Assembly: GCA_944381095.1 (NCBI GenBank)
Contig: CALWJW010000001.1
Coordinates: 1,987 to 65,986, forward strand
Origin: an uncultured Clostridia bacterium
GTDB taxonomy: Bacteria > Bacillota > Clostridia > Oscillospirales > CAG-272
Direction: 5' to 3'
DNA: 64,000 nt
Shown here: positions 4,722 to 61,186 of the stretch, piece by piece
How positions within the stretch are numbered: the first letter of the stretch is position 1
Layout of the letters: every line of letters begins with the position of its first letter
Made by a program: the position numbers and the translations under genes
Notes under the pieces: model-generated
Seen by the model: the letters and a program-made list of their open reading frames with translations, nothing else
Told to the model about the DNA's origin: nothing
Database searches by the model: none

Positions 4722-5214
4722 AAAAACTGCTTGTGCGGCGGCGTTTACCGTGCTTGCACTGGCGCTTTCTTATTTCGAAGGTTTTATTCCGCTGTCTTAC
4801 ATAATTCCTTTTCCGGGTATAAAGCTCGGACTCGCCAACATAGCGGTGATGGCAGCCTGTTTTTATCTCGGCATCGCATATGCGATCGGAGTTTCGCTTT
4901 GTCGGATATTTATAGGTTTTCTGCTGTTCGGTTCGGTTACATCGCTTTGGTTTTCGTTTTGCGGGGGAATTTTTGCCCTTGCCGGGCTATGGTTGTATAC
5001 TGCTTTCCTGAAAAATACAAATGGGATTATAGGAAGTTCGGTGCTTTGTGCGGCACTTCATTCAACGGGGCAATGCCTTGCCTGCTCAGCAATATACGGC
5101 TATTATGTGATGCTGACATACCTTCCGTACCTGTTGCTTTTTTCTGCGGCTACCGGAACGGTTATCGGCTTTATAGTCTGGCGTCTGATCAGTTTAAAAA
5201 TTTATCAGGGATAG
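4702..5214 (+). CDS. Gx transporter family protein (formerly heptaprenyl diphosphate synthase component I-like)
   Basis: 170 aa with about 5 TM helices. GGAGGAGG lies upstream of the ATG. This is the classic partner of NusG_II proteins. Confidence 0.7.
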   Translation: MTALSVKKTACAAAFTVLALALSYFEGFIPLSYIIPFPGIKLGLANIAVMAACFYLGIAYAIGVSLCRIFIGFLLFGSVTSLWFSFCGGIFALAGLWLYTAFLKNTNGIIGSSVLCAALHSTGQCLACSAIYGYYVMLTYLPYLLLFSAATGTVIGFIVWRLISLKIYQG

Positions 5215-28814: not shown

Positions 28815-29864
28815 TCACCTTACAGATTTTGTGAGTTCATCGATAACATTGTCCCAACAAATATCTTTAACAACGTCGTATCCTGAACAACCCATTTCTT
28901 CTGCCGTTTTTTTATTTTTGTAGAGTTCTTCGAATTTTTCGCCGAGCTCTTCCGGTAAGACATCACAAATAAATCCGTTTTCGCCGTTTTTTACAAATTC
29001 AAGCACGCCGCCGGAATCACGACAGGTAACTATCGGCTTTTTGGAAAGAAATGCTTCCAGAGTTATATAGCCGTAATCTTCGTCGATGGGGGGAAAACAA
29101 ACTCCGAGACATTCTGAATAAAGTTTAAGGAGTTCGTCATCCGGCACAAAACCGAGGAATCTGACTCTGTCTGACACCCCCAGACTGTCTGCGAGCTTTT
29201 TCAGATTATCCATCTCATTGCCTTTTCCCGCAATGACAGCCGTTATCTTTTTGTCACAGTATTGCAAAGCTTTGATTATCAGGTCGACTCTTTTAGTGCT
29301 GTCAAGTCTGCCGACGGAAAGTATATAGTCACCCATTGATTCAAAATAATATCTTCCCGCAAGTGACGGCGGATGATAAAGCGGGGTCGATTCTATGCCG
29401 TTGAAATGTTTCAGCCTCTGCGTAACATTTTTGGAAATGGTGTATCTGTCTTTGAATTCACTTATCCCGAGGGTGTCAAGAAAAGTTATTTTCTTTATCA
29501 TTTCTTCTCCGCCGGCAACAGTATGAAAGCCTCCTGCCTGTACGCTGTTTGCCAGATCGTACGCCGCCCGGTGCTGATGCATAAGCCACAACATCTTGTT
29601 TTTATGTTTTACCATGAAAGTAGGCGTTTTCAAGCAGATAACAAGATCGATCTTGCTGCCGTTTGATTCACTGAGATCAACAGTTCTCCACATTGCATAG
29701 GAATCCAGAAGACAGTTATTGGGATACCATTTGAACGGCAGAGAAACCATATCTGCCTCAAATCCCCTTTCCCTGAGTTTTGCGGTAAGGGTTTCAAGCA
29801 TTATTTCGGCTCCCCCGCGTATAAACGGTACCTGAGAATGAAGAACCGCCACTTTCTTTTTCAT
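28815..29864 (-). CDS. glycosyltransferase family 4
   Basis: This is ORF 28815..29993 with the start moved to ATG 29864 (MKKKVAVLHSQVPFIRGGAE), 8 nt after AAGGAG. It is GT-B, with FPPIDEDYGYITLEAFLSKKPIV. Confidence 0.8.
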   Translation of the reverse strand: MKKKVAVLHSQVPFIRGGAEIMLETLTAKLRERGFEADMVSLPFKWYPNNCLLDSYAMWRTVDLSESNGSKIDLVICLKTPTFMVKHKNKMLWLMHQHRAAYDLANSVQAGGFHTVAGGEEMIKKITFLDTLGISEFKDRYTISKNVTQRLKHFNGIESTPLYHPPSLAGRYYFESMGDYILSVGRLDSTKRVDLIIKALQYCDKKITAVIAGKGNEMDNLKKLADSLGVSDRVRFLGFVPDDELLKLYSECLGVCFPPIDEDYGYITLEAFLSKKPIVTCRDSGGVLEFVKNGENGFICDVLPEELGEKFEELYKNKKTAEEMGCSGYDVVKDICWDNVIDELTKSVR

Positions 29865-29869
29865 CGTCA

Positions 29870-31006
29870 TCACTCCTTGATAGCAATAATTGCATAGTCC
29901 ATGGGTCCATATAACTGACGTGCAATATTGTTTATAATCTTTTCGCAATCTTTGTAAGCTTCGTTTTCCGTACCGGAATTCAAATCCTTCCAACAGGAAT
30001 CCGGATTTGCTTCGATGATTCTGACTTGTTTATACCCGCACCAATCGAAATAATATTTTATCATTTCCGGCGGAAGAATTCGTTTATGTGTCGGATCATA
30101 GAAAAAAGTATTGGCTCCGACTGTGATATTGTCCGGATTCGGCGTTTCAAACAATACAATGCCTCCGGGTTTCAGCGCTTTTAGAGAGGATTTGAAAAGG
30201 TTCATAAGCTCTGACTGACGCAGATGCTCTATGATTTGTATGCCGGATATCATGTCGATGCTGTTTTCCGGCAATTCCTCAATGTATCTCACACAGTCGG
30301 TACACAATGTTTTATGCCCGTACTCTTCCGAAATGCTATTCTGGATTTTATTGAGATCTATTCCCACGTAATCGACAGCGCCGTTTTCCCTTATCACATC
30401 CAGCCATTCGCCTCTCCCGCTTCCTATGTCGACAAATCTGCACTTACTGAAATCCGGAAGATATTCCTTGACAACCGGAATATAAGATCTCAGCCTTTCG
30501 GTAATGTTATCCCTGGTTCCTCTGAAACGTTCCTCAAAGCAGTGATAAAACAGATCATCATCGCACGGAACATCCAGGCTTAATGATTTTTTGAATTCAT
30601 CGTTAAGTTGCCGGATACGGTTATTTGTTTCTTCCAGTTTAACGCTGACATTTTTTAATTCATCCCTGAGTTGCATCACCGAATCAATTAAAAGAGAATT
30701 GACTGATGTCTGTTGCTCGTAAACGGGGAAAATGTACCAACCGAAAAATATTCTGATCAGTTTTCTCAGCACTCTTTTGATGAAAGTCTTGATTTTTCCG
30801 TTTTGTATTGTGTGATAACCGTCTATCCGCTGTAATGACCTTGCGGTTGATAAGGTATTGTTGAGGGATTTGAAATCAGGAATGCAACCGGCAATTTCCG
30901 GTGATATTTCCTCATCAGTTTCAAGCACCTCGGATTTATAAGAGTTGTCGATCGCCAATTTCCTGTTTTTGACATTTCTTTGGAAATCTTTAAAGGTTAC
31001 GGACAT
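29870..31006 (-). CDS. class I SAM-dependent methyltransferase with N-terminal coiled-coil region
   Basis: 378 aa with the coiled segment LLIDSVMQLRDELKNVSVKLEETNNRIRQLNDEFKK, then FEERFRGTRDNITERLRSYIPV, SAM motif I VDIGSGRGEW, and LKPGGIVLFETPN. Confidence 0.8.
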   Translation of the reverse strand: MSVTFKDFQRNVKNRKLAIDNSYKSEVLETDEEISPEIAGCIPDFKSLNNTLSTARSLQRIDGYHTIQNGKIKTFIKRVLRKLIRIFFGWYIFPVYEQQTSVNSLLIDSVMQLRDELKNVSVKLEETNNRIRQLNDEFKKSLSLDVPCDDDLFYHCFEERFRGTRDNITERLRSYIPVVKEYLPDFSKCRFVDIGSGRGEWLDVIRENGAVDYVGIDLNKIQNSISEEYGHKTLCTDCVRYIEELPENSIDMISGIQIIEHLRQSELMNLFKSSLKALKPGGIVLFETPNPDNITVGANTFFYDPTHKRILPPEMIKYYFDWCGYKQVRIIEANPDSCWKDLNSGTENEAYKDCEKIINNIARQLYGPMDYAIIAIKE

Positions 31007-39938: not shown

Positions 39939-42200
39939 ATGAGCATTGTGACAGAGAACAAACAGATAAGCAGGTCAGACAAAAAAATTCGGGAGGCAGT
40001 GAAACTGATGAAATCAGTCTGGATAACCGCAAAGAACCGGAAACGGGAGAGTGGACTTTACCTGTTTACCGGGGAATATAATCTTAAAGAATGTGAAGTT
40101 TTAACATTGAACATAAGCGCTGACACAAGATACAAGCTTTATTTCAACGGCAGTTACATTTGTGAAGGACCCTGTCAGGGGGACCATTGGTTTTGGAGAT
40201 ACGAAACAGTAAAAATACCTCGGAAATACATATGCGACGGGATAAATCGCATTGAGGCATATGTCTACTACAACGGAGGAGATATATATCACACCCAGGC
40301 AAGGAAGGACAGTTGTGCCCTCATCGTTTTCGGAAGAGCGGAGAGCAAAGGAAAAGTAACTGAAATTAACACCGGTCTCGACTGGAAATGCCGTTTTCTT
40401 GACGGTTACAAATTCATACCGTCTCAGGGTGTCCATGTTTCAATGCCGCCGGTTCAGCTGATAACACCTGACAAGGCGACCGAATGTGAAGTTGCGGTAA
40501 AGAGCAGATGCCTGCTCGAAAACGACTGCGTTGACGATTACGGACTTTTTGATACGTACAGACTTAAAAAACGGGAAATAAAACTTTTTGCTCCCGGTGA
40601 GGCAGAAAAATTCAGATGCGTAAGACAAACGGAAAGCTCATCGGAGCTCGATGCCGGAAAATATACCACAGCATATCCGGAGTTCACTTTCAAAGGCAAA
40701 GAAGGCGGTCTGATAAGATTTACCTACGCGGAATGCTATTGCAATGAGAACGGAAGCAAGCTCGGACTTGACCGAAGCGGCACCGAAGGGGTTATAAGAG
40801 GCGTTTATGATGAGGTGGTTTTAACAGGCGAAGAGCAGAAATTCATACCGTATTTTTACAAAGCGTTCAGGTTCATAAAGGCCGAATATCCGGAGGGAAC
40901 GGTTTTTGAAGCGGATAACCAGATTTACAGACCGTATTTTTACCCGGTTGAAGGCAGTGGAAGTTACTGCTCAGACAGTGAGACGGAAAACAGGATGTGG
41001 GAAGTTTCCGTAAATACTTTGAAGTGCTGTACTCATGAAACATTTGTGGATTGCCCCTATTACGAGCAGTGCCAGTACGATATGGACACAACCCTTGAAG
41101 CAACCTTTATGATGAGACTGACAAACGACTATTCAATGCCGCGAAAGGCGGTATATGATCTCGCGCGCAGTCAGCAGCCTGACGGAATGCTTGCAGCGCA
41201 TTATCCCGCGTGGAGAATACAGGTCATTCCTACTTTTTCGCTTTTCTGGATACTCCTGCTGAGTGAGTATGTGATGAACTCAGGTGACACGGGTTGTCTT
41301 GGCGAGCTGTTGCCGTATGCCGAGAGGATACTCAGCGCATTCAGGATGCTGAAAAACGAAAAAGGTCTGGTAAAAGCGACGCCGTACTGGCATTACACGG
41401 ATTGGGTAGACGGCTGGAACGGGGGTGTTCCTCCCGAGGGAAGAAAGAAACCGCTTACAGTGACGTCCATGATGCTTGCTTATGCGCTGAAAAAGGCGGC
41501 GGAGCTGTGCGAAATCGCCGGTCGCGGTGCACTTGCAACAGAGTATGTGGCAGAATACAAAGAAACGGTCAAGGCAATTGAAGAAAATTGTTATGACGGT
41601 GAGATGCACTTTTATTCCGATACCCCCGGCGGACGGACATATTCCGAACACACGGCGGTATGGGCTGTACTGTCAGAATGTAAAACCGGGGAAGACGCAA
41701 AACAGTTGCTGATAAGAAGTTTTGAAGGTAATTACAGCAGAGCGTCGTTTTCATTCAGTTTCTATACGTTCAGGGCTCTGGAAAAAACGGGGCTGTATAC
41801 AAGGTACGCAGAAAGAATTTTTGACGGATGGCGAAAAATGCTGAATATGGGATGTACGACATGGGGTGAAAATCCCGGTAACCCCAGGAGTGAATGCCAT
41901 GCATGGAGCAGCGCTCCGATATATGAATATTCGGCAGTTTTTCTCGGTGTTAAGCCTACATTACCGGGTTATCGTAAGTTTGTCGTCAGACCGCAAATTG
42001 AAATGGCAGATAATGTCAGGGGAAGTGTGCCTACACCGTACGGAGAAATAGAGGTAAGTTTGCAAAAAATTGGCGGAGCGCTGAAATTCCGCGTACAAAA
42101 GCCTTTGGAGATTGAGGGACTGTTTGAAATATGCGGTCGGACGGCTGTCATACCGTCCGGTTCCGGAGAATTTGAAGCTGAGTTCAATTTAAGCAAATAA
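39939..42200 (+). CDS. six-hairpin glycoside hydrolase, alpha-L-rhamnosidase (GH78)-like
   Basis: 753 aa with an N-terminal beta-sandwich region, then HETFVDCPYYEQCQYDMDT and WGENP...ECHAWSSAP, typical of the rhamnosidase-like (alpha/alpha)6 family. The start is uncertain (39939, or MKSVWIT at 40008). Confidence 0.6.
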   Translation: MSIVTENKQISRSDKKIREAVKLMKSVWITAKNRKRESGLYLFTGEYNLKECEVLTLNISADTRYKLYFNGSYICEGPCQGDHWFWRYETVKIPRKYICDGINRIEAYVYYNGGDIYHTQARKDSCALIVFGRAESKGKVTEINTGLDWKCRFLDGYKFIPSQGVHVSMPPVQLITPDKATECEVAVKSRCLLENDCVDDYGLFDTYRLKKREIKLFAPGEAEKFRCVRQTESSSELDAGKYTTAYPEFTFKGKEGGLIRFTYAECYCNENGSKLGLDRSGTEGVIRGVYDEVVLTGEEQKFIPYFYKAFRFIKAEYPEGTVFEADNQIYRPYFYPVEGSGSYCSDSETENRMWEVSVNTLKCCTHETFVDCPYYEQCQYDMDTTLEATFMMRLTNDYSMPRKAVYDLARSQQPDGMLAAHYPAWRIQVIPTFSLFWILLLSEYVMNSGDTGCLGELLPYAERILSAFRMLKNEKGLVKATPYWHYTDWVDGWNGGVPPEGRKKPLTVTSMMLAYALKKAAELCEIAGRGALATEYVAEYKETVKAIEENCYDGEMHFYSDTPGGRTYSEHTAVWAVLSECKTGEDAKQLLIRSFEGNYSRASFSFSFYTFRALEKTGLYTRYAERIFDGWRKMLNMGCTTWGENPGNPRSECHAWSSAPIYEYSAVFLGVKPTLPGYRKFVVRPQIEMADNVRGSVPTPYGEIEVSLQKIGGALKFRVQKPLEIEGLFEICGRTAVIPSGSGEFEAEFNLSK

Positions 42201-52362: not shown

Positions 52363-53118
52363 ATGGAAGTGATAAACTGTGATGACAACGTGTATTCCAT
52401 AGAAGTGGAAAATGTTTACAAGCATTACAGAATATATAAGGACAAGGGAAGCCAACTAAAAGAAAAGCTTTTGTTCTGGTCCAGAAATAAATACACTGAA
52501 AACGCTGTGCTGAAAGGCATATCGCTCAAAGTGAAAAAAGGCGAGGCAGTGGGTTTTGTCGGACATAACGGTTGCGGAAAAAGTACCCTCCTGAAACTCC
52601 TCAGCAGAATAAGCTACCCGGATAAAGGAATAATAACAACAAGAGGCAGGATATCGGGGCTTATTGAGCTTGGCGCCGGATTTCATCCTGACATGACAGG
52701 AAGGGAAAATATATACACCAATGCGTCAATATACGGGCTGTGCAAGAAAGAAATAGATAAACGGCTTGATAAGATAATAGAATTTTCCGGACTTGGCGAA
52801 TTTATAGACGCGCCGGTAAGAACATATTCTTCCGGAATGTATATGCGACTCGGATTTTCGGTGGCGATCAATGTTGATGCAGATATACTGCTGATAGATG
52901 AAATACTCGCGGTCGGTGACAGTGAGTTTCAGGCGAAGTGTCTGAACGAGCTGAAAGAGGTAAAATCAAGAGGGACAACAATAGTGATTGTCAGCCATTC
53001 CTTGAACCAGATCGAAGAGATATGTGAAAAGAGCTACTGGATCCAGAATGGGGAAATTTGTATGGAGGGAGATCCGAGAGAGGTGCACAGGGCTTATCTT
53101 GAAGCCACGGTACATTGA
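52363..53118 (+). CDS. polysaccharide export ABC transporter ATP-binding protein (Wzt/TagH-like, short form)
   Basis: This is ORF 52327..53118 with the start moved to ATG 52363. It has Walker A GHNGCGKST, signature YSSGMYMRLGF and Walker B ILLIDE. There is no C-terminal carbohydrate-binding extension. Confidence 0.85.
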   Translation: MEVINCDDNVYSIEVENVYKHYRIYKDKGSQLKEKLLFWSRNKYTENAVLKGISLKVKKGEAVGFVGHNGCGKSTLLKLLSRISYPDKGIITTRGRISGLIELGAGFHPDMTGRENIYTNASIYGLCKKEIDKRLDKIIEFSGLGEFIDAPVRTYSSGMYMRLGFSVAINVDADILLIDEILAVGDSEFQAKCLNELKEVKSRGTTIVIVSHSLNQIEEICEKSYWIQNGEICMEGDPREVHRAYLEATVH

Positions 53119-53119
53119 T

Positions 53120-54508
53120 ATGCGCGCTGAAACAAAACTGAAATCAAATGTAAATCTATCCGGATTTATTTCGGAAGAGTATTTGTCCGATATGAAGGTC
53201 GGGAGATTTATTACAAATACGAAAAGACCGGAGTCAATTATCGGTTTTCAGGAGGTTAACGCGATTGAGTTCAGTTCAAGAGCAAACTCCCCGTATAAGC
53301 TCGAAGAAAATGATAATTCCGGTATGAGCAACCTTAATGTTGAAGATAAGAAAAATCAGCGGTCGGCAGAGAACCGATTTGATTCTTTTGAAAGCAGGCT
53401 GAAATTAACGGTTACGGTACTGATGTCAGCAGTACCGTTTTGTCATTATATTTTCAGCGGGGCAGTATTGTTGGCGGTTTCGCTTCTTCTTATCGCGATT
53501 CCTGCGTCAAGGAGAGAAATACTGCGTCAGAGAAGAATGGTGCTGTTAACAGTTATTATTTCTTCAATGTCGCTTCTTGTATCGGTAATTAACGCCAATA
53601 TAATAGGTATATTCATTACGTGGGGTATATTTCTGATCCTTATGGACGGAGCATACCTGAGAAGCGTCATGAACAGTTATTTATTGCGGATATCTTCCCT
53701 GACTGTCGCTGCCGGAGGAATTATAACAGCGCTGATAGTGATAGTACAGCGTGTAAATTTCGAAAATCCGGATCACAGACCATACGGTCTGGCATATAAT
53801 CCGAACTATCTCGGCTCGATAGCAGTGCTCTCAGCTGTGTTTGTTATTGTAATGTTATTTGACGGTAACTTTAAGCAAACCGGAAGAGAGATAATTGTTA
53901 AATCGTTTTATGCTCTGTCACTTATATGTGATGTGATAACTATACTGATAAGCGAAAGCAGGTCGTCATTGCTTGCGCTGACAGCGGCTGTGATAGTGTT
54001 TGTTTTTCTTAAAGGACATTATGTAATTACGGCTGTTTGCTGTGTTGCGGGTGCGATGATCTGGGTGGTAGGTCTGATAGATCCGGGCATATTTTCATGG
54101 ACGAATTCGCTGACAGAAGTCTTCTCCGGCAGGGTGGAAATATGGAAGGACGCATTTAAGTCGTTTTCGTCTGATTTTTTCACTGCAATGTTCGGACGAG
54201 GTCCTATGACATATTATCTTGTGAAAAATTCAGAGGGACTTACAGAGGCAAATCACGCTCATAACATACTGCTTGACACGCTTATAAACGCTGGGATTAT
54301 CGGCTTTTTCATTTACTTGGCGATAGTGGCGGACATACTAAACAAAGCATTTGATTTGAGTCGCAAGGGCGACAAGACCTCGTTTATACTGATTACCGTT
54401 GCGGTATGTGGCGTGGCAGTGCAGCGAATTCCCGATGTCACGATAATGTGGCACCAGACTGCGATACTGTTTATGATAATCTGCGCCGCAAAAAAAGTAA
54501 ACGATTAA
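53120..54508 (+). CDS. O-antigen ligase / O-antigen polymerase family (Wzy_C) membrane protein with N-terminal soluble extension
   Basis: This is ORF 53024..54508 with the start moved to the first ATG after the Wzt stop (53120). It has ~120 aa of hydrophilic N-terminus, then ~10 TM helices, with the periplasmic-loop motif region SESRSSLLAL and ...ANHAHNILLDTLINAGIIG. The start is uncertain and no clear SD is present. Confidence 0.7.
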   Translation: MRAETKLKSNVNLSGFISEEYLSDMKVGRFITNTKRPESIIGFQEVNAIEFSSRANSPYKLEENDNSGMSNLNVEDKKNQRSAENRFDSFESRLKLTVTVLMSAVPFCHYIFSGAVLLAVSLLLIAIPASRREILRQRRMVLLTVIISSMSLLVSVINANIIGIFITWGIFLILMDGAYLRSVMNSYLLRISSLTVAAGGIITALIVIVQRVNFENPDHRPYGLAYNPNYLGSIAVLSAVFVIVMLFDGNFKQTGREIIVKSFYALSLICDVITILISESRSSLLALTAAVIVFVFLKGHYVITAVCCVAGAMIWVVGLIDPGIFSWTNSLTEVFSGRVEIWKDAFKSFSSDFFTAMFGRGPMTYYLVKNSEGLTEANHAHNILLDTLINAGIIGFFIYLAIVADILNKAFDLSRKGDKTSFILITVAVCGVAVQRIPDVTIMWHQTAILFMIICAAKKVND

Positions 54509-54843: not shown

Positions 54844-57084
54844 ATGAGACTCAGGCACTTAAAAATCGTACTTATCCCGGTCGTCTTAGTGATAACCTTG
54901 ATGACATTTTGCGGTTGCTTTGACATAGACGATGTCATAGTTGATCTCGGACTGTACCAAAGAAACACAAAAGCCAATACCAAATTTACTGTCGTTGTCC
55001 GGGAAACCGCCGGAGTGACAGTGGACGGTGACAGTGTAAAAGAAGTTGCAAGCGGTCAAAAGGCAGTGTTCAAGGTTTCAATTGACGAAAATAACTATGT
55101 ATACCTAGGAAATACGGCTGACGCCAGTTACAATTCGAAAGATAAAACGCTTACAGTCAGCCGTGTACAATCGCCGATGACGATAGATTTTATTCTTGTG
55201 GACAAGAGCGAACTGTACTGCGTGAACACCTACTCGAATGTCAGTTCCGGCTATATAAGCTTTGTACAGGGAAGCTCCCTTATGCTGGAGCCAGAAAAGG
55301 TAACAGTGCAGGTAACTGTACCCAGCGGTTATATTTTCCAGGGTTGGACGGTCGGAGAGTATCTCGATAACGGTGGTAAGCTGGTGGGAACCGACCCGGT
55401 ATATTCATTCACACCCGAAGACAGAAGAGTTGACCTTTATGCTAACCTTGCAAGTGAGTCACAGTACAGGATAACATATGACGCAAACGGCGGAAGCATA
55501 AAGAACTTCTCGGGAGAACAGTACACTATACGCGGAACTTTCAGTACAATGTTTTCAATGCAACAGACGCTGAATGAAAACAATTCCGGCGTAAAATTCG
55601 AAAGACCGGGTTATACGGCGATAGGTTACAGCACTGAAAAAACAACGGATTACCGTGATTATAATTCTGTGAACGATATAGAAGGATTCAGCAACATGGG
55701 CGGAGTGTGCCAGGTGCCTTCATCAGGATCGCTTACTCTGAATGTCGTGTGGGCTGAAAACACAGCAGAATCGGATTTTGAAGTCCAATCTGTTACATAC
55801 ACCGATGTTTACAGCGAGGGAGGGGTCGAAGGAAGCGGTAAAATTACCAAATCCGGTTGCATTATAACGAGGTGTACTGTAAGGTCTGATACTGTCGTCA
55901 TTCCCGAAACAATCAACGGACAAACGGTTATCGGAATAAAATCCGGTGCATTCAACGGAAACGTGTTGCAAAAGATAGTTATACCGAAGACGGTGCTGAG
56001 AATTGAAAGCGATGCGTTTACCGGAAGTTACAGGCTCAGAGAAGTAGTGTTCTTTGACAGTTTACAGTACGTAAGCAATTCAAGTTTTCCGAACTCAGTG
56101 CAAACAGTGGTAATGAACGCACAGAGGCTTCCGGTGTATGCGGGATCTGCGGAGGGTAGCTTTTGTATAAAATACGAGAGAGTGAGAACCCTGAAAGGTA
56201 AAAAGCTTATAGTCGTGTCCGGCTCGTCGACGCTCAACGGACTTAATTCTCCTCAGCTTGAAGAGAATTTCGACAACGAATACAGCGTTGTCAACTACGG
56301 TACAAATGCCGGTACTCAGATGCTGTTTTATCTTGACGTGATTTCAAATTACACAAAACCAGGCGATATCGTTATTCATGCTCCCGAGTGGAATTCAGAC
56401 GGTCCCATGGGAGGCAACAGCATTCAATGGAGGATGTTCAGAGGCAATAATCAGTGCTATGACATATTCAGAGAAGTAAATATGTCTGAATACAGCAATT
56501 TCTGGGGTGCATATCAGTTATTCCAGATAGGCGGGAAAAACGGTAGCGAAATTGTTATCGGTGCGGTTACCATGAAAGGTAAAGAGTATCAGAATTCAAA
56601 CACCGGAATGAATCTTTACGGAGATCTGCTCGGTAACAGGTATAATTACAACGGATTTTCGTATTCATCGGTTCAAGGATTTTCAGAGTCCTACATAACT
56701 TCGAATAAAAGGGCGGAAAACCTTAACAGAGTAAATTCACGGATAACGGCAAAGGGCGGCACGCTGCTGTTCAGCTTCGGCACAATGCTTTACGAAAGAC
56801 TGAGTCCCGGTGTAAGGAACGCGTCTGATTACGATAATTTCACTAAGCAGTGCGCAAATGCGCTTGATTTTCCGGTTATATCAAACGTCGGAACTTATCT
56901 TTTCAAGGAAAGGTATATGAGCAATTCAGAGTGGCACTGCACATATGAAGGTGCTGATATAAGGACTGAGGAGCTCACTTATGACCTGAAAAAATTCTTG
57001 AATTCGTCAGGACTCAGCGATACCTACGAGACGTACAACACGAGAAAATCTCACAATTCATCGGCATATCAGAACGGAATGTGA
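54844..57084 (+). CDS. lipoprotein: Flg_new-type repeats + BspA-type LRR + C-terminal DltD/AlgX-like (SGNH-like) domain
   Basis: 746 aa with the lipobox LMTFCGC. The repeat motifs are FQGWTV, YRITYDANGGS and PGYTAIGYS. The LRR is VVIPETINGQTVIGIKSGAFNGN..IVIPKTVLRIESDAFTG. The C-terminal domain is KKLIVVSGSSTLNG...APEWNS...NSEWH. Confidence 0.75.
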   Translation: MRLRHLKIVLIPVVLVITLMTFCGCFDIDDVIVDLGLYQRNTKANTKFTVVVRETAGVTVDGDSVKEVASGQKAVFKVSIDENNYVYLGNTADASYNSKDKTLTVSRVQSPMTIDFILVDKSELYCVNTYSNVSSGYISFVQGSSLMLEPEKVTVQVTVPSGYIFQGWTVGEYLDNGGKLVGTDPVYSFTPEDRRVDLYANLASESQYRITYDANGGSIKNFSGEQYTIRGTFSTMFSMQQTLNENNSGVKFERPGYTAIGYSTEKTTDYRDYNSVNDIEGFSNMGGVCQVPSSGSLTLNVVWAENTAESDFEVQSVTYTDVYSEGGVEGSGKITKSGCIITRCTVRSDTVVIPETINGQTVIGIKSGAFNGNVLQKIVIPKTVLRIESDAFTGSYRLREVVFFDSLQYVSNSSFPNSVQTVVMNAQRLPVYAGSAEGSFCIKYERVRTLKGKKLIVVSGSSTLNGLNSPQLEENFDNEYSVVNYGTNAGTQMLFYLDVISNYTKPGDIVIHAPEWNSDGPMGGNSIQWRMFRGNNQCYDIFREVNMSEYSNFWGAYQLFQIGGKNGSEIVIGAVTMKGKEYQNSNTGMNLYGDLLGNRYNYNGFSYSSVQGFSESYITSNKRAENLNRVNSRITAKGGTLLFSFGTMLYERLSPGVRNASDYDNFTKQCANALDFPVISNVGTYLFKERYMSNSEWHCTYEGADIRTEELTYDLKKFLNSSGLSDTYETYNTRKSHNSSAYQNGM

Positions 57085-57094
57085 GGTAACTGAA

Positions 57095-57403
57095 ATGGAA
57101 CTTGTGATATTTTCAAATACTTTTGCGCTGATAGCAATGGGAGTGACTTTGTTTTTATATCTGCTTTCGGCTGTAATAAGTGTTATGCAAACAGTCGCAG
57201 AGGCTAATAATTGCGGGGATGGCAGCCGTATGCTGATTTCGGTTCTGAAAAACGTGTCCGGTGTGCTCTGTATAATTTCACAGCTGGTGATGTTCGGTGT
57301 GTTTTTCTACATCGGTGCGTCATCGCAGGAGCTGTTGTTTGCGCTGATGGTATGCACGGCGCTGTCACTTGTGATAAGTGCTCCCCGAAAGGAGAAGAAG
57401 TAA
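57095..57403 (+). CDS. small 3-TM membrane protein of unknown function
   Basis: 102 aa. The SD GTGAGGT lies 7 nt upstream. It is tightly packed between the lipoprotein and the MBOAT gene (10-nt and 3-nt gaps). Confidence 0.6.
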   Translation: MELVIFSNTFALIAMGVTLFLYLLSAVISVMQTVAEANNCGDGSRMLISVLKNVSGVLCIISQLVMFGVFFYIGASSQELLFALMVCTALSLVISAPRKEKK

Positions 57404-57406
57404 AAA

Positions 57407-58891
57407 ATGGTCTTCAATTCTCTGGAATTTCTTATATTTTTTCCGATAGTACTCATTCTTTACAGAATATTGCCCCTTAAAATCCGCTGGGTAATGTTGC
57501 TGATAACAAGCTACTACTTCTATATGGGCTGGCAGGCGGACCTTTTATATCTTATTCTTTTTACAACTTTGGTGTCGTACGTGTGTGCCAGAAAGATAGA
57601 GGCTTCTGTGACCAAAAGAGCCAGGAAAATATATCTCGTAATCGCCTTGGTCGCTTCTCTCAGTGTGCTTTTCTTTTTCAAATATTTCAATTTTCTCTCA
57701 GAAAATGTTACAGGACTATTAGAGCTTATGGGATTCGGAGTAAGTGAGTTTACTCTTAATCTTATTCTTCCTGTGGGCATATCCTTTTACACATTCCAGA
57801 CTCTCTCATATGTCATCGACGTTTACAGAGGTATGATAAAAGCGGAAAAACATTTTGGTTATTACGCGCTTTATGTTTCATATTTTCCGCAGCTTGTCGC
57901 CGGACCTATCGAAAGACCCGAAAACCTTCTTCCGCAGCTCAAAAGAAAAAATCCGTTCACGGCATATGACACAGCAGTAGGACTTAAAATGATGGCGGTA
58001 GGATTTTTCAAGAAGGTAGCGGTGGCTGACCAGATATCCAAATATGTAGACGGCGTTTACAACAATCTGGATAAAACGACGCCCGGACTCATCAACGGTT
58101 TCACGATAACAGTTGCAACGGTATTGTTTGCAGTACAGATCTACTGCGACTTTTCCGGATACACCGACATAGCGATCGGTTGTGCAAGGGTAATGGGAAT
58201 AAAGCTGATGCAAAACTTCGATAACCCATACTCTGCGACGAGTATAAAGGACTTCTGGCGCAGATGGCATATCTCACTGACATCCTGGTTTACAGATTAT
58301 TTATATATACCTCTCGGAGGATCCAGGTGCAGTAAAGTAAAGCATTACAGAAACATCCTGATAGTATTTTTCATTTCAGGTGTATGGCACGGTGCGGCAT
58401 GGACGTTCATCCTCTGGGGAACAATGCACGGAATATATCAGATTGTCGGAAACATTACCGCAAAATACCGGGTGATGTTGTGGGATAAGCTTGGAGTAAG
58501 TCAGCAGAATCCGATACTTGTAATTGCAAAAAAGATCGGAACCTTCGCTTTGGTATGCATAGCATGGATGGCATTCAGGGCAAACAGTCTTCGGGATCTC
58601 GGGTTCTTATACAAGCAATTGTTCACAGGATGGTCCGGAGTCAGCATCACCGAATCAATGAAAGCACTTGACATGTCGGTTATGGCATTGATGACGGTAG
58701 TATTTTCGGTGTTCGTTATAAACCTGCTTGACAAACAGATAAATCTGCGCATAGATGAGCTGCACCTTGACTCGGGACTCAGTGTTCCGAGAGCAAATGC
58801 CTATATAACGGTATGCTGGACAGTCTGTGTTGCCTGGCTTATACTGCTTGCTTCAAACGCAGCGAGTTCGTTTATATATTTCCAGTTCTGA
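57407..58891 (+). CDS. MBOAT family O-acyltransferase (AlgI/DltB-like)
   Basis: 494 aa, polytopic, with MVFNSLEFLIFFPIV, VGISFYTFQTLSYVIDVY, FWRRWHISLTSWFTDYLYIPLGGSR and ISGVWHGAAW (containing the catalytic His). Confidence 0.9.
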   Translation: MVFNSLEFLIFFPIVLILYRILPLKIRWVMLLITSYYFYMGWQADLLYLILFTTLVSYVCARKIEASVTKRARKIYLVIALVASLSVLFFFKYFNFLSENVTGLLELMGFGVSEFTLNLILPVGISFYTFQTLSYVIDVYRGMIKAEKHFGYYALYVSYFPQLVAGPIERPENLLPQLKRKNPFTAYDTAVGLKMMAVGFFKKVAVADQISKYVDGVYNNLDKTTPGLINGFTITVATVLFAVQIYCDFSGYTDIAIGCARVMGIKLMQNFDNPYSATSIKDFWRRWHISLTSWFTDYLYIPLGGSRCSKVKHYRNILIVFFISGVWHGAAWTFILWGTMHGIYQIVGNITAKYRVMLWDKLGVSQQNPILVIAKKIGTFALVCIAWMAFRANSLRDLGFLYKQLFTGWSGVSITESMKALDMSVMALMTVVFSVFVINLLDKQINLRIDELHLDSGLSVPRANAYITVCWTVCVAWLILLASNAASSFIYFQF

Positions 58892-58966
58892 GGAGAGACG
58901 GCAGATGACAGAGATAAAAAACGATAAAACAAAGTCGCTTGTCGGAACGGAAAGGAAGGCATAAGT

Positions 58967-59164
58967 ATGTTTTTAAACGATAAAAGAACCAGCACGCAGT
59001 ATATACTATGTTGGATATTCACGCTGGGGATATACAATGTGATATTCAAGAGACAGGTCGCCTCCGATATCAACAAGATATTCAAAGCGAAAAAGGTTGA
59101 ACTTCCGGGAGCAAAATACTTTTTCCTTAACTTTATAACACTGAGAATTAACGGTGGAACATGA
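58967..59164 (+). CDS. small membrane protein fragment (DUF4234-like GIY hairpin), ends at an in-frame TGA
   Basis: 65 aa. The SD AAGGAAGG lies 7 nt upstream. YILCWIFTLGIYNVIF resembles the TCGIY helix of DUF4234-type proteins (from memory). It is in the same frame as ORF 59300..61186. Confidence 0.4.
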   Translation: MFLNDKRTSTQYILCWIFTLGIYNVIFKRQVASDINKIFKAKKVELPGAKYFFLNFITLRINGGT

Positions 59165-59299
59165 GACATACAGGTACTTGAACTGATTCAGGGATATATA
59201 AAAGAAAACGGTTCTGATGTCACGATCGATTACGAAAATTACAAATTTTTCGGAAAAATCCCGATAGCCAGAGTAACTATTGTCGCCGACTTTATCAAA

Positions 59300-61186
59300 A
59301 TGATAAATGAAGCTTGCAGGATATACAGCGCAAAGGAACTTGAAGAGATAAATGCTGACGATTATCTTGCAGTGAACAGAGTACATGAGATAAATGAGGA
59401 GGAGATTTTAACTGCCGTAACAGAAAAACAGAACGATAGCTCAGGCGAGGATGTAACTGAAAATGCCGAGAGCATAAACGAAGCAGAAAATCCGAAAAAA
59501 AAGCAGGAAAAGAAAGAAGACGGCAATTATAAGATAGCAGGATACGCGGTCGTTGAGGAGTACGATCCGGAAAGTGACCAGAAGAGAATAGCTTACCGCC
59601 TCAGAATGGAAAGGGAAGCGAGAGCGTTGGCACGGCAAAAGCAGGAAGAAACTCCTGTAATAACACCTCAGGAAACAAAAATTGATATAGACCAGACACC
59701 AATCAGCTGTTACAGAAACAAGAGGTGGATGATCAAAGTTTTTTCGGCGCTTTTTGGGGTGTTCATACTGCCGTTTATAGCAATAGCGGTTATGTGTTTC
59801 GGATTTCCGACATATAACGAAACTTTCGTCGGAGAGCTGGGCGATAAGTTCGACAGACTTAATAGTTTTGATGAGCCGAAAATAATTGTCGTAGGCGGAA
59901 GCTCGGTAGCTTTCGGACTTGACAGTTCGCTTATACAGCAGGAGTTAGGTTATAAGGTGATCAACTTCGGGCTTTATGCGGATCTCGGTACAAAAATGAT
60001 GATGGATCTGTCAAAAAGCAATATAGGAGAAGGAGATATTATAATACTTGCTCCGGAGATGAACAGTCAGACATTGTCGCTTTATTTCAACGGTGAGACA
60101 GCGCTTCAGGCGCTTGACGGAAACTGGCATATGCTTTTTGATATAGCAAGTGAAGATTACGGTTCGCTCATCGGAGCGTCACTGAAATTTGCGCAGAACA
60201 AATTGAATTATCTGATAAGCGGTACTGTTCCGGAAAATGAAGGAGCGTATAGGAAAGAGAATTTCAACGGATTCGGTGACAATATTTATGACAGACCTTA
60301 CAATGTAATGACAGGAGTTCAGAATGTAATAACACTGAATTTCAATGCGAATTTTTCCGACAGCAGGACTACTGATTACGAAGAATATATCGACTACGTA
60401 AACAAATATGTTCATTTTGCCGAGCGGAAGGGGGCAACAGTATATTTCAGCTTTTGTCCGATGAACGCAGCGGCAATGTCAGTTGAAAATTCAGAAAGAT
60501 CGATAAATTCATTTTACGATAATCTGTGTGAAAACCTTGAATGCAAAGTAATAAGTAATGTGTATGACTATATACTTGACGAAGGATATTTCTTTGACAG
60601 TGAATTTCATCTTAACAACGCCGGAGTGACGGTAAGAACGGTAAGACTTATTGACGATATCAAGCGTCAGCTTGGAGATCAGACGATAACGATTCCGGAA
60701 CTTGAATTGCCAGAGCCTCCCGGATATAAACCTATTGAAGGTGCAGATGGTGAAGAGGGAACTGAAAACTTCTTGTTCGAGCTGATACAGATAGGAGAAA
60801 AGGAGTATTATCAGATAACCGGTTTGTCTGAAACAGGAAAACAGGCGGCTGAGCTGACTGTTCCGAATAACTATCAGGGAATTCCGGTTGTAAGGATAGC
60901 GAAAGACGCGTTCAGCGGTTGCACGAATCTGAAAACGCTGAATCTCGGCGAAAACATATCTTCAATTGTCGCATATGCGTTCAGAGGTTCATCAATCACA
61001 GCAGTTTACGTGCCTGACGGCAAAGGTCCTGACGATATATCAGTACCTAATTCGATGTCAGAAGCACTTGCAACCGAGGGAAGCGATCCGGCACTTAGAA
61101 TTTACGTTGACAGTAATTATTACAACTCATTTACGGCTGACTACTTCTGGGGAGATTACGCTGCTTGTTTAGCCCCGAAGAGCTGA
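59300..61186 (+). CDS. membrane-anchored DltD/AlgX-like (SGNH-like) protein with C-terminal BspA-type LRR; start uncertain or possibly disrupted
   Basis: 628 aa from ATG 59300, which has no SD. It has an acidic N-region, a TM helix WMIKVFSALFGVFILPFIAIAVMCFGF, then PKIIVVGGSSVAFG...APEMNS...DSEFH, and the LRR LTVPNNYQGIPVVRIAKDAFSGCTNLKTLNL. It is a paralogue of the C-terminal domain of 54844..57084. Confidence 0.7.
   Translation: MINEACRIYSAKELEEINADDYLAVNRVHEINEEEILTAVTEKQNDSSGEDVTENAESINEAENPKKKQEKKEDGNYKIAGYAVVEEYDPESDQKRIAYRLRMEREARALARQKQEETPVITPQETKIDIDQTPISCYRNKRWMIKVFSALFGVFILPFIAIAVMCFGFPTYNETFVGELGDKFDRLNSFDEPKIIVVGGSSVAFGLDSSLIQQELGYKVINFGLYADLGTKMMMDLSKSNIGEGDIIILAPEMNSQTLSLYFNGETALQALDGNWHMLFDIASEDYGSLIGASLKFAQNKLNYLISGTVPENEGAYRKENFNGFGDNIYDRPYNVMTGVQNVITLNFNANFSDSRTTDYEEYIDYVNKYVHFAERKGATVYFSFCPMNAAAMSVENSERSINSFYDNLCENLECKVISNVYDYILDEGYFFDSEFHLNNAGVTVRTVRLIDDIKRQLGDQTITIPELELPEPPGYKPIEGADGEEGTENFLFELIQIGEKEYYQITGLSETGKQAAELTVPNNYQGIPVVRIAKDAFSGCTNLKTLNLGENISSIVAYAFRGSSITAVYVPDGKGPDDISVPNSMSEALATEGSDPALRIYVDSNYYNSFTADYFWGDYAACLAPKS

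Follow-up and report, generated by a model that had tools for sequence, protein, structure and literature searches.

Within the window, the whole stretch of 64,000 nucleotides analysed here, a short DUF4234 membrane hairpin and a large SGNH-like protein are annotated in the same frame with a single TGA codon dividing them. The locus thus raises the question of whether this stop codon reflects a genuine gene boundary, a recoding site or a recent mutation in the organism, or whether it was introduced during sequencing and assembly.

Reading frame and architecture of the protein

The following features were located in and immediately before the reading frame.

58967..61186, + strand: a single gene, broken in this assembly, whose product is a membrane protein of 739 aa (assigned from homologues, AF2, Foldseek and Pfam)
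58967..59164, + strand: ORF of the 65-aa N-terminal fragment, a DUF4234 hairpin truncated midway through helix 2
59162..59164, + strand: in-frame TGA in place of the TGG (Trp) found elsewhere at codon 66
59300..59302, + strand: ATG without an SD, internal codon Met112 of the intact protein and not a start codon
59729..59731, + strand: internal ATG, Met255, with AAGAGG 3 nt upstream, just ahead of the TM helix
58905..58964, + strand: upstream ORF of 19 codons with its own SD-like GAGGAGAG, filling the intergenic gap between the MBOAT and DUF4234 genes

Translation of 58967..61186 (+ strand) yields 740 codons with one internal stop, the TGA at 59162-59164, and the ORFs 58967..59164 and 59300..61186 therefore constitute a single frame interrupted only at this codon, as had been proposed in the initial annotation. 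Its further observations on the frame are borne out as well: the 45 codons past the TGA are all open, the earliest ATG, GTG or TTG is the ATG at 59300, and this codon is preceded by tcgccgactttatcaaa, which lacks an SD, while the ATG at 58967 is preceded by ggaaaggaagg. As to the ATG at 59300, the alignment shows the FIKMINEACRIYS region to be conserved within the full-length homologues. The upstream ORF of 19 codons, also noted earlier, is present and has counterparts of 20 codons in the 75%-identical species L003 and of 19 codons in L004; none was found in L005.

Sequence searches identified more than 40 clusters of single 700-760 aa proteins with PF14018, whose coverage of the read-through query is 97-100%, and the read-through translation can be aligned with such intact proteins from end to end (100% of its length). 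One of these (P0001, 738 aa) is 99% identical to the read-through protein; TBLASTN gave contiguous matches in three other species, and the closest other-species match in the scan of genome contigs shows 78% amino acid identity. The position of codon 66 is occupied by Trp in 29 of the 38 full-length homologues and never by a stop, and among the same 38 sequences Tyr62 is invariant and Gly60 is retained in 36. All 13 independent conspecific assemblies (98.2-100% nucleotide identity) carry TGG at codon 66, and the six full-length members and three fragments of the 90%-identity cluster uniformly read FITLGIYGAKWDIP. The 65-aa product (P0127 in the cluster table) is recorded only on the contig of the window (67,657 bp). 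Thus, the core of the initial annotation, that a single gene for a protein of about 740 aa is broken at a Trp codon, agrees with the homologues, and the comparison with orthologues that it had suggested, when carried out, returned single proteins with TGG at this codon.

The 739-aa protein comprises a DUF4234 two-helix hairpin (aa 9-80), a cytoplasmic linker that is helical and then disordered, a TM helix (aa 252-279), an SGNH-like alpha/beta domain (aa ~290-570) and a BspA-type LRR (aa ~600-738), and the homologues have the same layout of N-terminal DUF4234 hairpin, linker, one TM helix, SGNH-like domain and BspA-type LRR. DUF4234 and LRR_5 were found by Pfam in the read-through protein, and the PF14018 match is precomputed for the intact homologues; the 65-aa fragment scores 26.7 bits (gathering cutoff 25.3) over profile positions 5-55 of 70 only. 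In the AF2 model of an intact orthologue (mean pLDDT 83.6, with residues 290-570 mostly above 85-90), the second helix consists of residues 61-80, with the stop falling at residue 66. The motif of the first DUF4234 helix, sought as T-[LF]-G-x-Y, is intact (TLGIY), and in all conspecific assemblies both helices carry it; in the window the second helix is incomplete and lacks the pattern, reading TLRIN and then the stop. DUF4234 (PF14018) proteins, for which no function is known to us, are small two-helix membrane proteins with the same twin T-[LF]-G-[IV]-Y helices; they stand alone, whereas here the hairpin forms the N-terminal part of a large protein with several domains.

The central domain may be SGNH-like, going by weak Foldseek matches to the SGNH esterases 2hsj, 2o14, 1deo, 6xpg and 4iyj (E 7e-3 to 0.13, with TM on target of 0.37-0.52 and high rmsd); weak LRR matches were also returned. 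Across 62 homologues G311, S313, D544 and E546 never vary and S312 and H548 hardly do, and the G311/S312/S313 and D544/H548 blocks are candidates for the catalytic Ser of block I and the Asp/His of block V, respectively.

The substitution patch and other assemblies of the strain

Comparison with other assemblies brought out three further features.

59144..59172, + strand: patch of six substitutions private to this assembly, in comparison with L001 and scaffold_859
59129..59135, no strand: AACTTTA, a 7-base contig overlap joined by 10 Ns in ENA ERZ28614008 scaffold_859
54411..54425, + strand: a second, window-private cluster of substitutions at the 3' terminus of the Wzy_C gene, with G in place of C at 54411 and C in place of G at 54425

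The six substitutions (window/others: 59144 A/G, 59150 A/T, 59157 G/C, 59160 C/A, 59164 A/G, 59172 A/C) lie within 29 bp, include four transversions, are all nonsynonymous and fall at near-invariant residues (G60R, Y62N, A64G, K65T, W66*, P69Q), converting TLGIYGAKWDIP into TLRINGGT*DIQ in the window. The initial annotation had correctly recognised the loss of a Trp codon, but the change of TGG to TGA is one part of a six-base patch and not a single mutation; the second GIY motif that it described as 'decayed' is likewise to be seen in the sequence, but arises from the same six clustered changes. At the six sites the bases are G, T, C, A, G and C in the 13 conspecific assemblies, as they are in the 75%-identical species L003, and no intermediate alleles were found among them. 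With these sites set to N, the resulting degenerate pattern matched none of the JGI metagenome contigs, a collection from which the species is apparently absent. The coexistence of mutant and ancestral alleles within one sample could also upset an assembler near such a patch.

In scaffold_859 the gap precedes the first changed base, at 59144, by 9 bp, and the contig to the right of the gap opens with the ancestral sequence, including TGG. The junction of 10 Ns with a 7-bp overlap marks a coverage gap. Scaffold_859 is identical to window positions 40291-64000 (23.7 kb) but for 12 substitutions, which form three tight clusters, and this near-identity suggests that it and the contig of the window were assembled from the same reads. 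Logan contigs assembled from run ERR4096267 show 100% identity to the window (5644 bp and 3037 bp, none of those compared crossing the TGA site), whereas all other samples are 98.2-99.7% identical; therefore the same strain, probably from the same read set, has been assembled three ways.

At the second cluster, scaffold_859 has a private change of its own at 54412, and a Logan contig of ERR4096267 ends at 54410, exactly where the window-private changes begin. That the three assemblies break or disagree at the same places points to coverage gaps and not to alleles. The eight window-private changes found in a four-way comparison of 21 kb are clustered and all nonsynonymous, with six transversions and no indels, a profile of Illumina-type error rather than of variation filtered by selection. 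Natural variation in the region is also patchy: strains that are ~1% diverged differ by as many as 16-18 SNPs in 29 bp, and clustering by itself is therefore no proof of error. The names of SPAdes contigs for the species from the Brazilian samples give coverages of 2.3-5.4x. A frameshift in the overlapping minus-strand ORFs at 28815-31006, considered as another sign of poor assembly, was rejected, since these are distinct GT1 and methyltransferase genes.

Origin of the stop codon

The TGA is most probably absent from the DNA of the organism and was brought in by an error-laden read bridging a coverage gap, because it belongs to an assembly-private patch right beside the coverage gap of a second assembly. 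The comparisons show that the patch of six substitutions is unique to this assembly, that a scaffold gap lies next to it and that the orthologues are intact. From the comparison of assemblies we infer a course of events in which read coverage would have nearly broken at 59129-59135 in the metagenomic run and the assembler would have crossed the break on one or very few reads; a low-quality read tail would have brought six substitution errors within the next 44 nt, and the true sequence on the right, left as a dead-end tip of ~44 nt, would have been clipped. Erroneous bridging and tip clipping are a known failure mode of low-coverage de Bruijn graph assembly. The outcome would be a false nonsense codon and a falsely 'decayed' second GIY motif, upon which gene callers would report a 65-aa stub and a 628-aa protein from an internal Met without an SD. 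The patch resembles the errors of low-coverage metagenome assembly, a class assigned here from assemblies and not from reads, in that its substitutions are private, clustered, rich in transversions and free of indels, in their position, no more than 44 nt from a contig junction in another assembly of the strain, and in the occurrence of an extra private cluster where a third assembly breaks. Among the three causes offered in the initial annotation, sequencing or assembly error is accordingly favoured, and a recent nonsense mutation is left as the minority view.

A real and very recent clustered multi-nucleotide mutation, arising by error-prone repair or by a short conversion from a donor outside the window, is considered unlikely. 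It would leave either a fresh pseudogene or a 65-aa stub together with a product made by inefficient reinitiation at 59300 or from the ATG at 59729. The deposited sequence does contain the patch, ancestral and mutant alleles together could contribute to the break in scaffold_859, and homologues of 490-590 aa without DUF4234 exist, with Met255 aligned with their start. However, the haplotype is a singleton among 14 assemblies and has no intermediates, the same-strain scaffold_859 has TGG, and the 7-bp overlap with Ns fits a coverage gap, whereas a variant bubble would break at 59144. The other private changes are also clustered where two other assemblies of the strain break or disagree, and decay following pseudogenisation would be expected along the whole gene and not within 29 bp. 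Gene conversion or template switching from within the window was rejected: no k-mer of at least 11 containing a mutated base occurs elsewhere in the window on either strand (the rest of the genome, beyond this search of the window, could still hold a donor), no quasi-palindrome in the window accounts for the six changes, and the local hairpin is no better for the mutant (-24.0 kcal/mol) than for the ancestral sequence (-25.7 kcal/mol).

Less probable again is a particular form of this event, in which a real single-event patch in one gut Clostridia strain has just severed the DUF4234 hairpin from an SGNH-like partner of the MBOAT protein and a working short form is made from the AAGAGG-led ATG at 59729. 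The homologues of 490-590 aa start at the place equivalent to Met255, and L006 and L007 match the query from residues 250-252 onward; the existence of such short homologues indicates that the module of TM helix, SGNH-like domain and LRR can work alone, and, were the stop real, translation of a short form might begin at the ATG at 59729. The severed hairpin would then be a snapshot of how the relatives without DUF4234 arose.

The explanations that treat the interruption as functional fare much worse. Programmed recoding of the TGA, whether as selenocysteine, by an alternative code for Trp or Gly, or by regulated readthrough, would suit a stop at a Trp position with an open frame downstream, but its probability is practically negligible. 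Of the 34 long ORFs in the window, 24 end in TGA, among them the MBOAT gene directly upstream, in keeping with the doubt already expressed in the initial annotation about global recoding, and the flanking codons are also altered in a manner that breaks invariant positions. Since all conspecific strains have TGG, the TGA is not conserved. The RNA following it shows no structure beyond chance (MFE -10.8 against a shuffle mean of -11.5 kcal/mol, z = 0.29) and no Rfam match at E<=1. Recoding was rejected on the basis of TGG in the 13 conspecific assemblies and L003, the lack of an RNA signal and the common use of TGA as a stop, and the readthrough or reinitiation raised earlier found no support as a designed mechanism. 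It is hardly credible, too, that a small DUF4234 protein and a separate 628-aa SGNH-like protein starting at 59300 are two genuine genes. Gene callers do annotate them so, but no homologue is split in this way, conservation as internal protein sequence extends over the 45 codons in between and the ~140 codons that follow the ATG at 59300, the 59300 start has no SD, and the 65-aa product ends at position 55 of the 70 in the DUF4234 profile; the two-gene arrangement was rejected by the orthologue alignment. Targeted hypervariation of the second hairpin helix, by a diversity-generating retroelement or by phase variation, would be consistent with a tight cluster of substitutions without indels in which four of the six window bases are A. 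It is nevertheless exceedingly improbable: the changed residues are the most conserved of the domain, A occurs just once among the six ancestral bases, so that the pattern is not adenine-directed, and no second copy that could act as template repeat was found in the window. The site is invariant in the 13 conspecific assemblies and in the 75%-identical species, so that it is not a variable region, and both mechanisms were rejected on this ground.

Assembly error thus being the favoured origin, the main value of the case lies in quality control. Public protein collections already hold the locus as proteins of 65 aa and 628 aa, entries that are almost certainly artefacts of low-coverage MAG assembly. 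A usable test for a suspect nonsense codon is to set it against a second assembly of the same strain and to seek adjacent contig junctions.

The MBOAT locus

The underlying biology is ordinary and only partly charted: the gene is a single ORF of ~739 codons beside an MBOAT gene in a cell-wall polysaccharide gene cluster. Two of its neighbours are listed below.

57407..58891, + strand: MBOAT acyltransferase (Pfam PF03062, 5.6e-31)
54844..57084, + strand: paralogue of 746 aa, anchored by an N-terminal TM segment and sharing the central SGNH-like domain, with a match to LRR_5

Over 322 aa, this paralogue shares 30% identity with the P0001 central domain (E 1e-19), and the motifs VVSGSS/VVGGSS and SEWH/SEFH are aligned between the two. 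Other genes of the neighbourhood encode two GT4 proteins, an ABC-2 permease and ATPase, Wzy_C, a 102-aa membrane protein and a P-type ATPase.

Bacterial MBOAT-SGNH pairs that acylate the envelope include PatA/PatB, DltB/DltX/DltD and AlgI/AlgJ/AlgX (PMC12148441). The last six residues of the MBOAT protein, FIYFQF (58871-58888), fit the FXYXXF acyl-shuttle motif as defined in the same study (PMC12148441), and its SSFIYFQF* ending is kept in L003, L004 and L005. The fusion of this motif to the MBOAT protein recalls PatA, and the MBOAT protein is presumed to be the partner of the two SGNH-like proteins that flank it. As in the known pairs, these are membrane-anchored and extracytoplasmic, with an invariant Ser in GGSS and an invariant Asp and near-invariant His in DSEFH, and the genes sit among glycosyltransferase, ABC-2 exporter and Wzy_C genes of a polysaccharide cluster, like those of the MBOAT-SGNH envelope systems.

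The label 'DltD-like' given in the initial annotation has no support at the sequence level, since no DltD match was obtained in Pfam (E<=1), in NCBIfam, or in the PDB with either phmmer or a 62-sequence profile. No AMP-binding or PP-binding gene (dltA/dltC) was called among the genes immediately around the locus, and the MBOAT protein scores 154.9 bits against the DltB equivalog model, under its cutoff of 375; membership of DltD was rejected on these grounds, and there is no sequence-level match to the PatB and AlgX families either. Unlike the characterised systems, this locus encodes a pair of paralogous SGNH-like partners that both contain a BspA-type LRR, and one partner has an N-terminal DUF4234 hairpin and a cytoplasmic linker of ~170 aa. 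To our knowledge, no member with this architecture has been characterised. The combination of an FXYXXF-fused MBOAT protein with two flanking SGNH-like/LRR proteins, one of them carrying DUF4234, recurs in many ruminant and gut Clostridia.

The interrupted reading frame and its homologues

Translation of 58967..61186 gives one frame of 740 codons for the DUF4234-SGNH gene, with the TGA at 59162-59164 as its lone interruption, as described in the initial annotation. The 45 codons 3' of the TGA are open and contain no ATG, GTG or TTG, so a mechanical ORF list resumes only at ATG 59300. No SD precedes this ATG (preceding sequence tcgccgactttatcaaa); ATG 58967 is preceded by ggaaaggaagg. These points and the 19-codon upstream ORF had been noted from the sequence, and everything in that description is found in the window.

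54844..57084 (+), first SGNH-like gene, 746 aa
57407..58891, MBOAT gene
58905..58964, 19-codon ORF that fills the MBOAT-DUF4234 intergenic space
58967..61186 (+), DUF4234-SGNH gene, broken by the TGA

The split is present in the deposited sequence, but the organism itself most probably lacks it. The 65-aa piece scores 26.7 bits against Pfam DUF4234 (gathering score 25.3), covering only profile positions 5-55 of 70, and this product is restricted to one contig of 67,657 bp in NCBI and ENA.

A search with the read-through translation, W being placed at the stop, found more than 40 PF14018-bearing protein clusters of ~700-760 aa with 97-100% query coverage, a few others being longer (876-958 aa). 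The closest homologues show 99% (P0001, intact, 738 aa), 79% and 77% identity. In the alignment, conservation as internal protein sequence extends over the residues flanking the stop, the 45 'intergenic' codons and the stretch that follows Met 59300, and tblastn against the genomes of three other species gave contiguous matches to query residues 1-731 or 1-737. Because both analyses show contiguous single proteins, the orthologues are not two separate genes, an arrangement that the initial annotation would have counted against an interrupted gene; they are single proteins of ~740 aa with Trp at the stop codon, as it had predicted. The homologue alignment likewise rejects two true genes in the window. 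Among 38 full-length homologues, Y62 is present in 38, G60 in 36 and W66 in 29, and in the 90%-identity cluster six of six full-length members and three of three fragments read FITLGIYGAKWDIP. Cluster member P0129 (88 aa, on a 1160-bp ENA contig) passes at residue ~83 (…YIKENG) into …LYRKEN, a sequence that belongs near residue 430 in this protein; it probably represents a deletion variant or a short contig that is chimeric.

Clustered substitutions and assemblies of the same strain

The window protein differs from P0001 at 12 positions, six of them in residues 60-69, and the six underlying substitutions are all nonsynonymous, four being transversions.

Clustered differences involving the window
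Patch, bases (window/other): 59144 A/G, 59150 A/T, 59157 G/C, 59160 C/A, 59164 A/G, 59172 A/C
Patch, amino acids (P0001 to window): G60R, Y62N, A64G, K65T, W66*, P69Q
scaffold_859 against window: 41759/41804/41817; 54411/54412/54425; six at 59144-59172

The proposed TGG to TGA change does lie at a Trp codon, not as a lone difference but as one of six clustered changes, and the same patch accounts for the altered motif that had been read as a decayed second GIY motif. The ancestral base occurs at all six sites in 13/13 independent conspecific assemblies, with no intermediate haplotype among them (ERZ17292903, ERZ27268650, GCA_949282145.1, ERZ28613881, ERZ24773245, ERZ28613960, ERZ24773275, ERZ24773274, ERZ16268163, ERZ24773261, ERZ16268255, ERZ28614243 and ERZ28614008), and likewise in a species with only 75% nucleotide identity (locus L003).

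Logan contigs of run ERR4096267 (5644 bp and 3037 bp) match the window at 100% identity with zero mismatches and every other sample at 98.2-99.7%; therefore, the window's strain is the strain in that run. The 54-kb scaffold_859 of ENA assembly ERZ28614008, taken as a second assembly of this strain, is identical to window 40291-64000 save for 12 substitutions, which fall into three tight clusters. Its junction at window 59129-59135 consists of a left contig end ...CCTTAACTTTA, ten Ns and a right contig start AACTTTATAACACTGGGAATTTACGGTGCAAAATGGG..., the contigs overlapping by 7 bp; the six changes private to the window all follow 9-37 nt to the right of this junction. Scaffolders leave such an N-bridged 7-bp overlap at a coverage gap that is not crossed by any k-mer. 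With a variant bubble, the break would be expected at the first variant base instead.

Apart from the patch, the window has just two private substitutions, 54411 (G vs C) and 54425 (C vs G). Both are at the 3' end of Wzy_C (53024..54508) and are predicted from codon positions to be nonsynonymous. One ERR4096267 Logan contig stops at 54410, one base short of the first, and scaffold_859 carries its own private base between them, at 54412; the window probably has a second assembly error here. Breaks or disagreements among three assemblies of one strain fall at the same two places, a pattern that thin coverage explains better than three alleles would. In a 21-kb four-way comparison the window-private changes (n=8) are all clustered nonsynonymous substitutions, six of them transversions, with no indels. 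In other samples, the coverages given in the SPAdes contig names for this species are only 2.3-5.4x.

In the rhamnosidase gene (39939..42200), 41759 is polymorphic among strains and the private bases (41804, 41817) belong to scaffold_859; with private clusters in each, small clustered errors therefore probably occur in both assemblies. At 61030-61096, towards the 3' end of the DUF4234-SGNH gene, the window differs from the conspecific locus L001 at 11 sites in 67 bp (SMSEALATEG vs QMSGALATDG). Since the window version is common to other strains (homologues P0125, P0126), this patch is natural recombination or variation in the LRR tail and not error.

Origin of the TGA

Of the causes listed in the initial annotation, sequencing or assembly error is favoured, and we consider it likely that the TGA is an assembly artefact produced by an error-rich read across a coverage gap. 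The sole path over the gap would have been one error-rich read tail, which merged back into the correct sequence past 59172; the genuine start of the right-hand side, ~44 nt long, would have become a dead-end tip and been removed, leaving a false TGA and a falsely split gene. A real, very recent clustered mutation, the nonsense mutation of that list, is an unlikely minority rival. It would make the gene a fresh pseudogene, or one rescued from internal ATG 59729, which has AAGAGG 3 nt upstream and aligns with the start of DUF4234-less homologues of 490-590 aa. Against it, the six-base haplotype occurs only once, the second assembly of the strain reads TGG, the scaffold_859 junction bears the coverage-gap signature, and neither a donor nor a quasi-palindrome was found in the window.

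Recoding of TGA is rejected: the TGA at this site is not conserved, and TGA terminates 24 of 34 long ORFs, the MBOAT gene directly upstream among them, in agreement with the earlier view that global recoding is unlikely. The RNA 3' of the TGA shows no structure (z = 0.29), and an Rfam search gave no match. DGR-type hypervariation is rejected too: the site does not vary between strains, only one of the six ancestral bases is A, and the window has no repeat copy.

Protein architecture and the MBOAT cluster

The AF2 model of P0001 (62-sequence alignment, mean pLDDT 83.6) predicts the following:

Residues 9-39 and 49-80, two-helix hairpin
To about residue 130, helical segment
Residues 132-199 and 228-244, disordered linkers
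Residues 252-279, TM helix
Residues ~290-570, alpha/beta domain
Residues 600-738, beta-rich LRR region

In Foldseek searches against PDB, the central domain gave weak matches to the SGNH esterases 2hsj, 2o14, 1deo, 6xpg and 4iyj (E 7e-3 to 0.13; TM on target 0.37-0.52) and the C-terminus matched BspA-type LRR proteins. The invariant columns include G311, S313, D544 and E546, with H548 nearly invariant, a pattern compatible with SGNH blocks I and V. No sequence method found DltD for this protein, and the earlier label 'DltD-like' is not retained. The protein of 54844..57084 has the same central domain (30% identity, E 1e-19). Both paralogues, which flank the MBOAT gene, bear BspA-type LRR_5 repeats, N-terminal to the putative catalytic domain in 54844-57084 and C-terminal in 58967-61186, an architecture not known from characterised MBOAT-SGNH systems.

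The MBOAT between them (PF03062, 5.6e-31) ends in FIYFQF (58871-58888), an exact fit to FXYXXF, and SSFIYFQF* is kept in three other species (loci L003, L004, L005). The FXYXXF acyl-shuttle motif likewise stands at the C-terminus of PatA-type MBOATs and, in the Dlt system, on DltX (PMC12148441). Because of this ending and a score of 154.9 bits against the DltB equivalog model (cutoff 375), the MBOAT is of PatA/AlgI type, not DltB type. Two GT4 glycosyltransferases, an ABC-2 exporter pair and the Wzy_C protein are encoded upstream, and neither dltA nor dltC is found among the genes around the locus. From gene context and the published MBOAT-SGNH mechanism, we infer that the locus may encode a module of the PatA/PatB kind, with two SGNH-like partners, that O-acylates a secreted cell-wall glycopolymer. 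The DUF4234-SGNH family is new-looking yet unremarkable among known systems of the MBOAT-SGNH kind.

A 19-20 codon ORF with an SD-like GAGGAG/GGAGA occupies the gap after the MBOAT gene in three species, the window's and those of L003 and L004 (which share 78% and 48% protein identity with the former), where it lies directly upstream of position 5001; it is absent from L005. The peptides are weakly similar (…ERKA, …EREAN, …VKEAA), and the 3' end of each ORF runs into the SD of the gene that follows. Such an ORF might act as a leader or in coupling, or might have arisen by chance. Between the first SGNH-like gene and the MBOAT lies a 102-aa predicted membrane protein (57095-57403) with no Pfam or NCBIfam match; it has the same length at all conspecific loci and could serve the acylation module as an accessory subunit.
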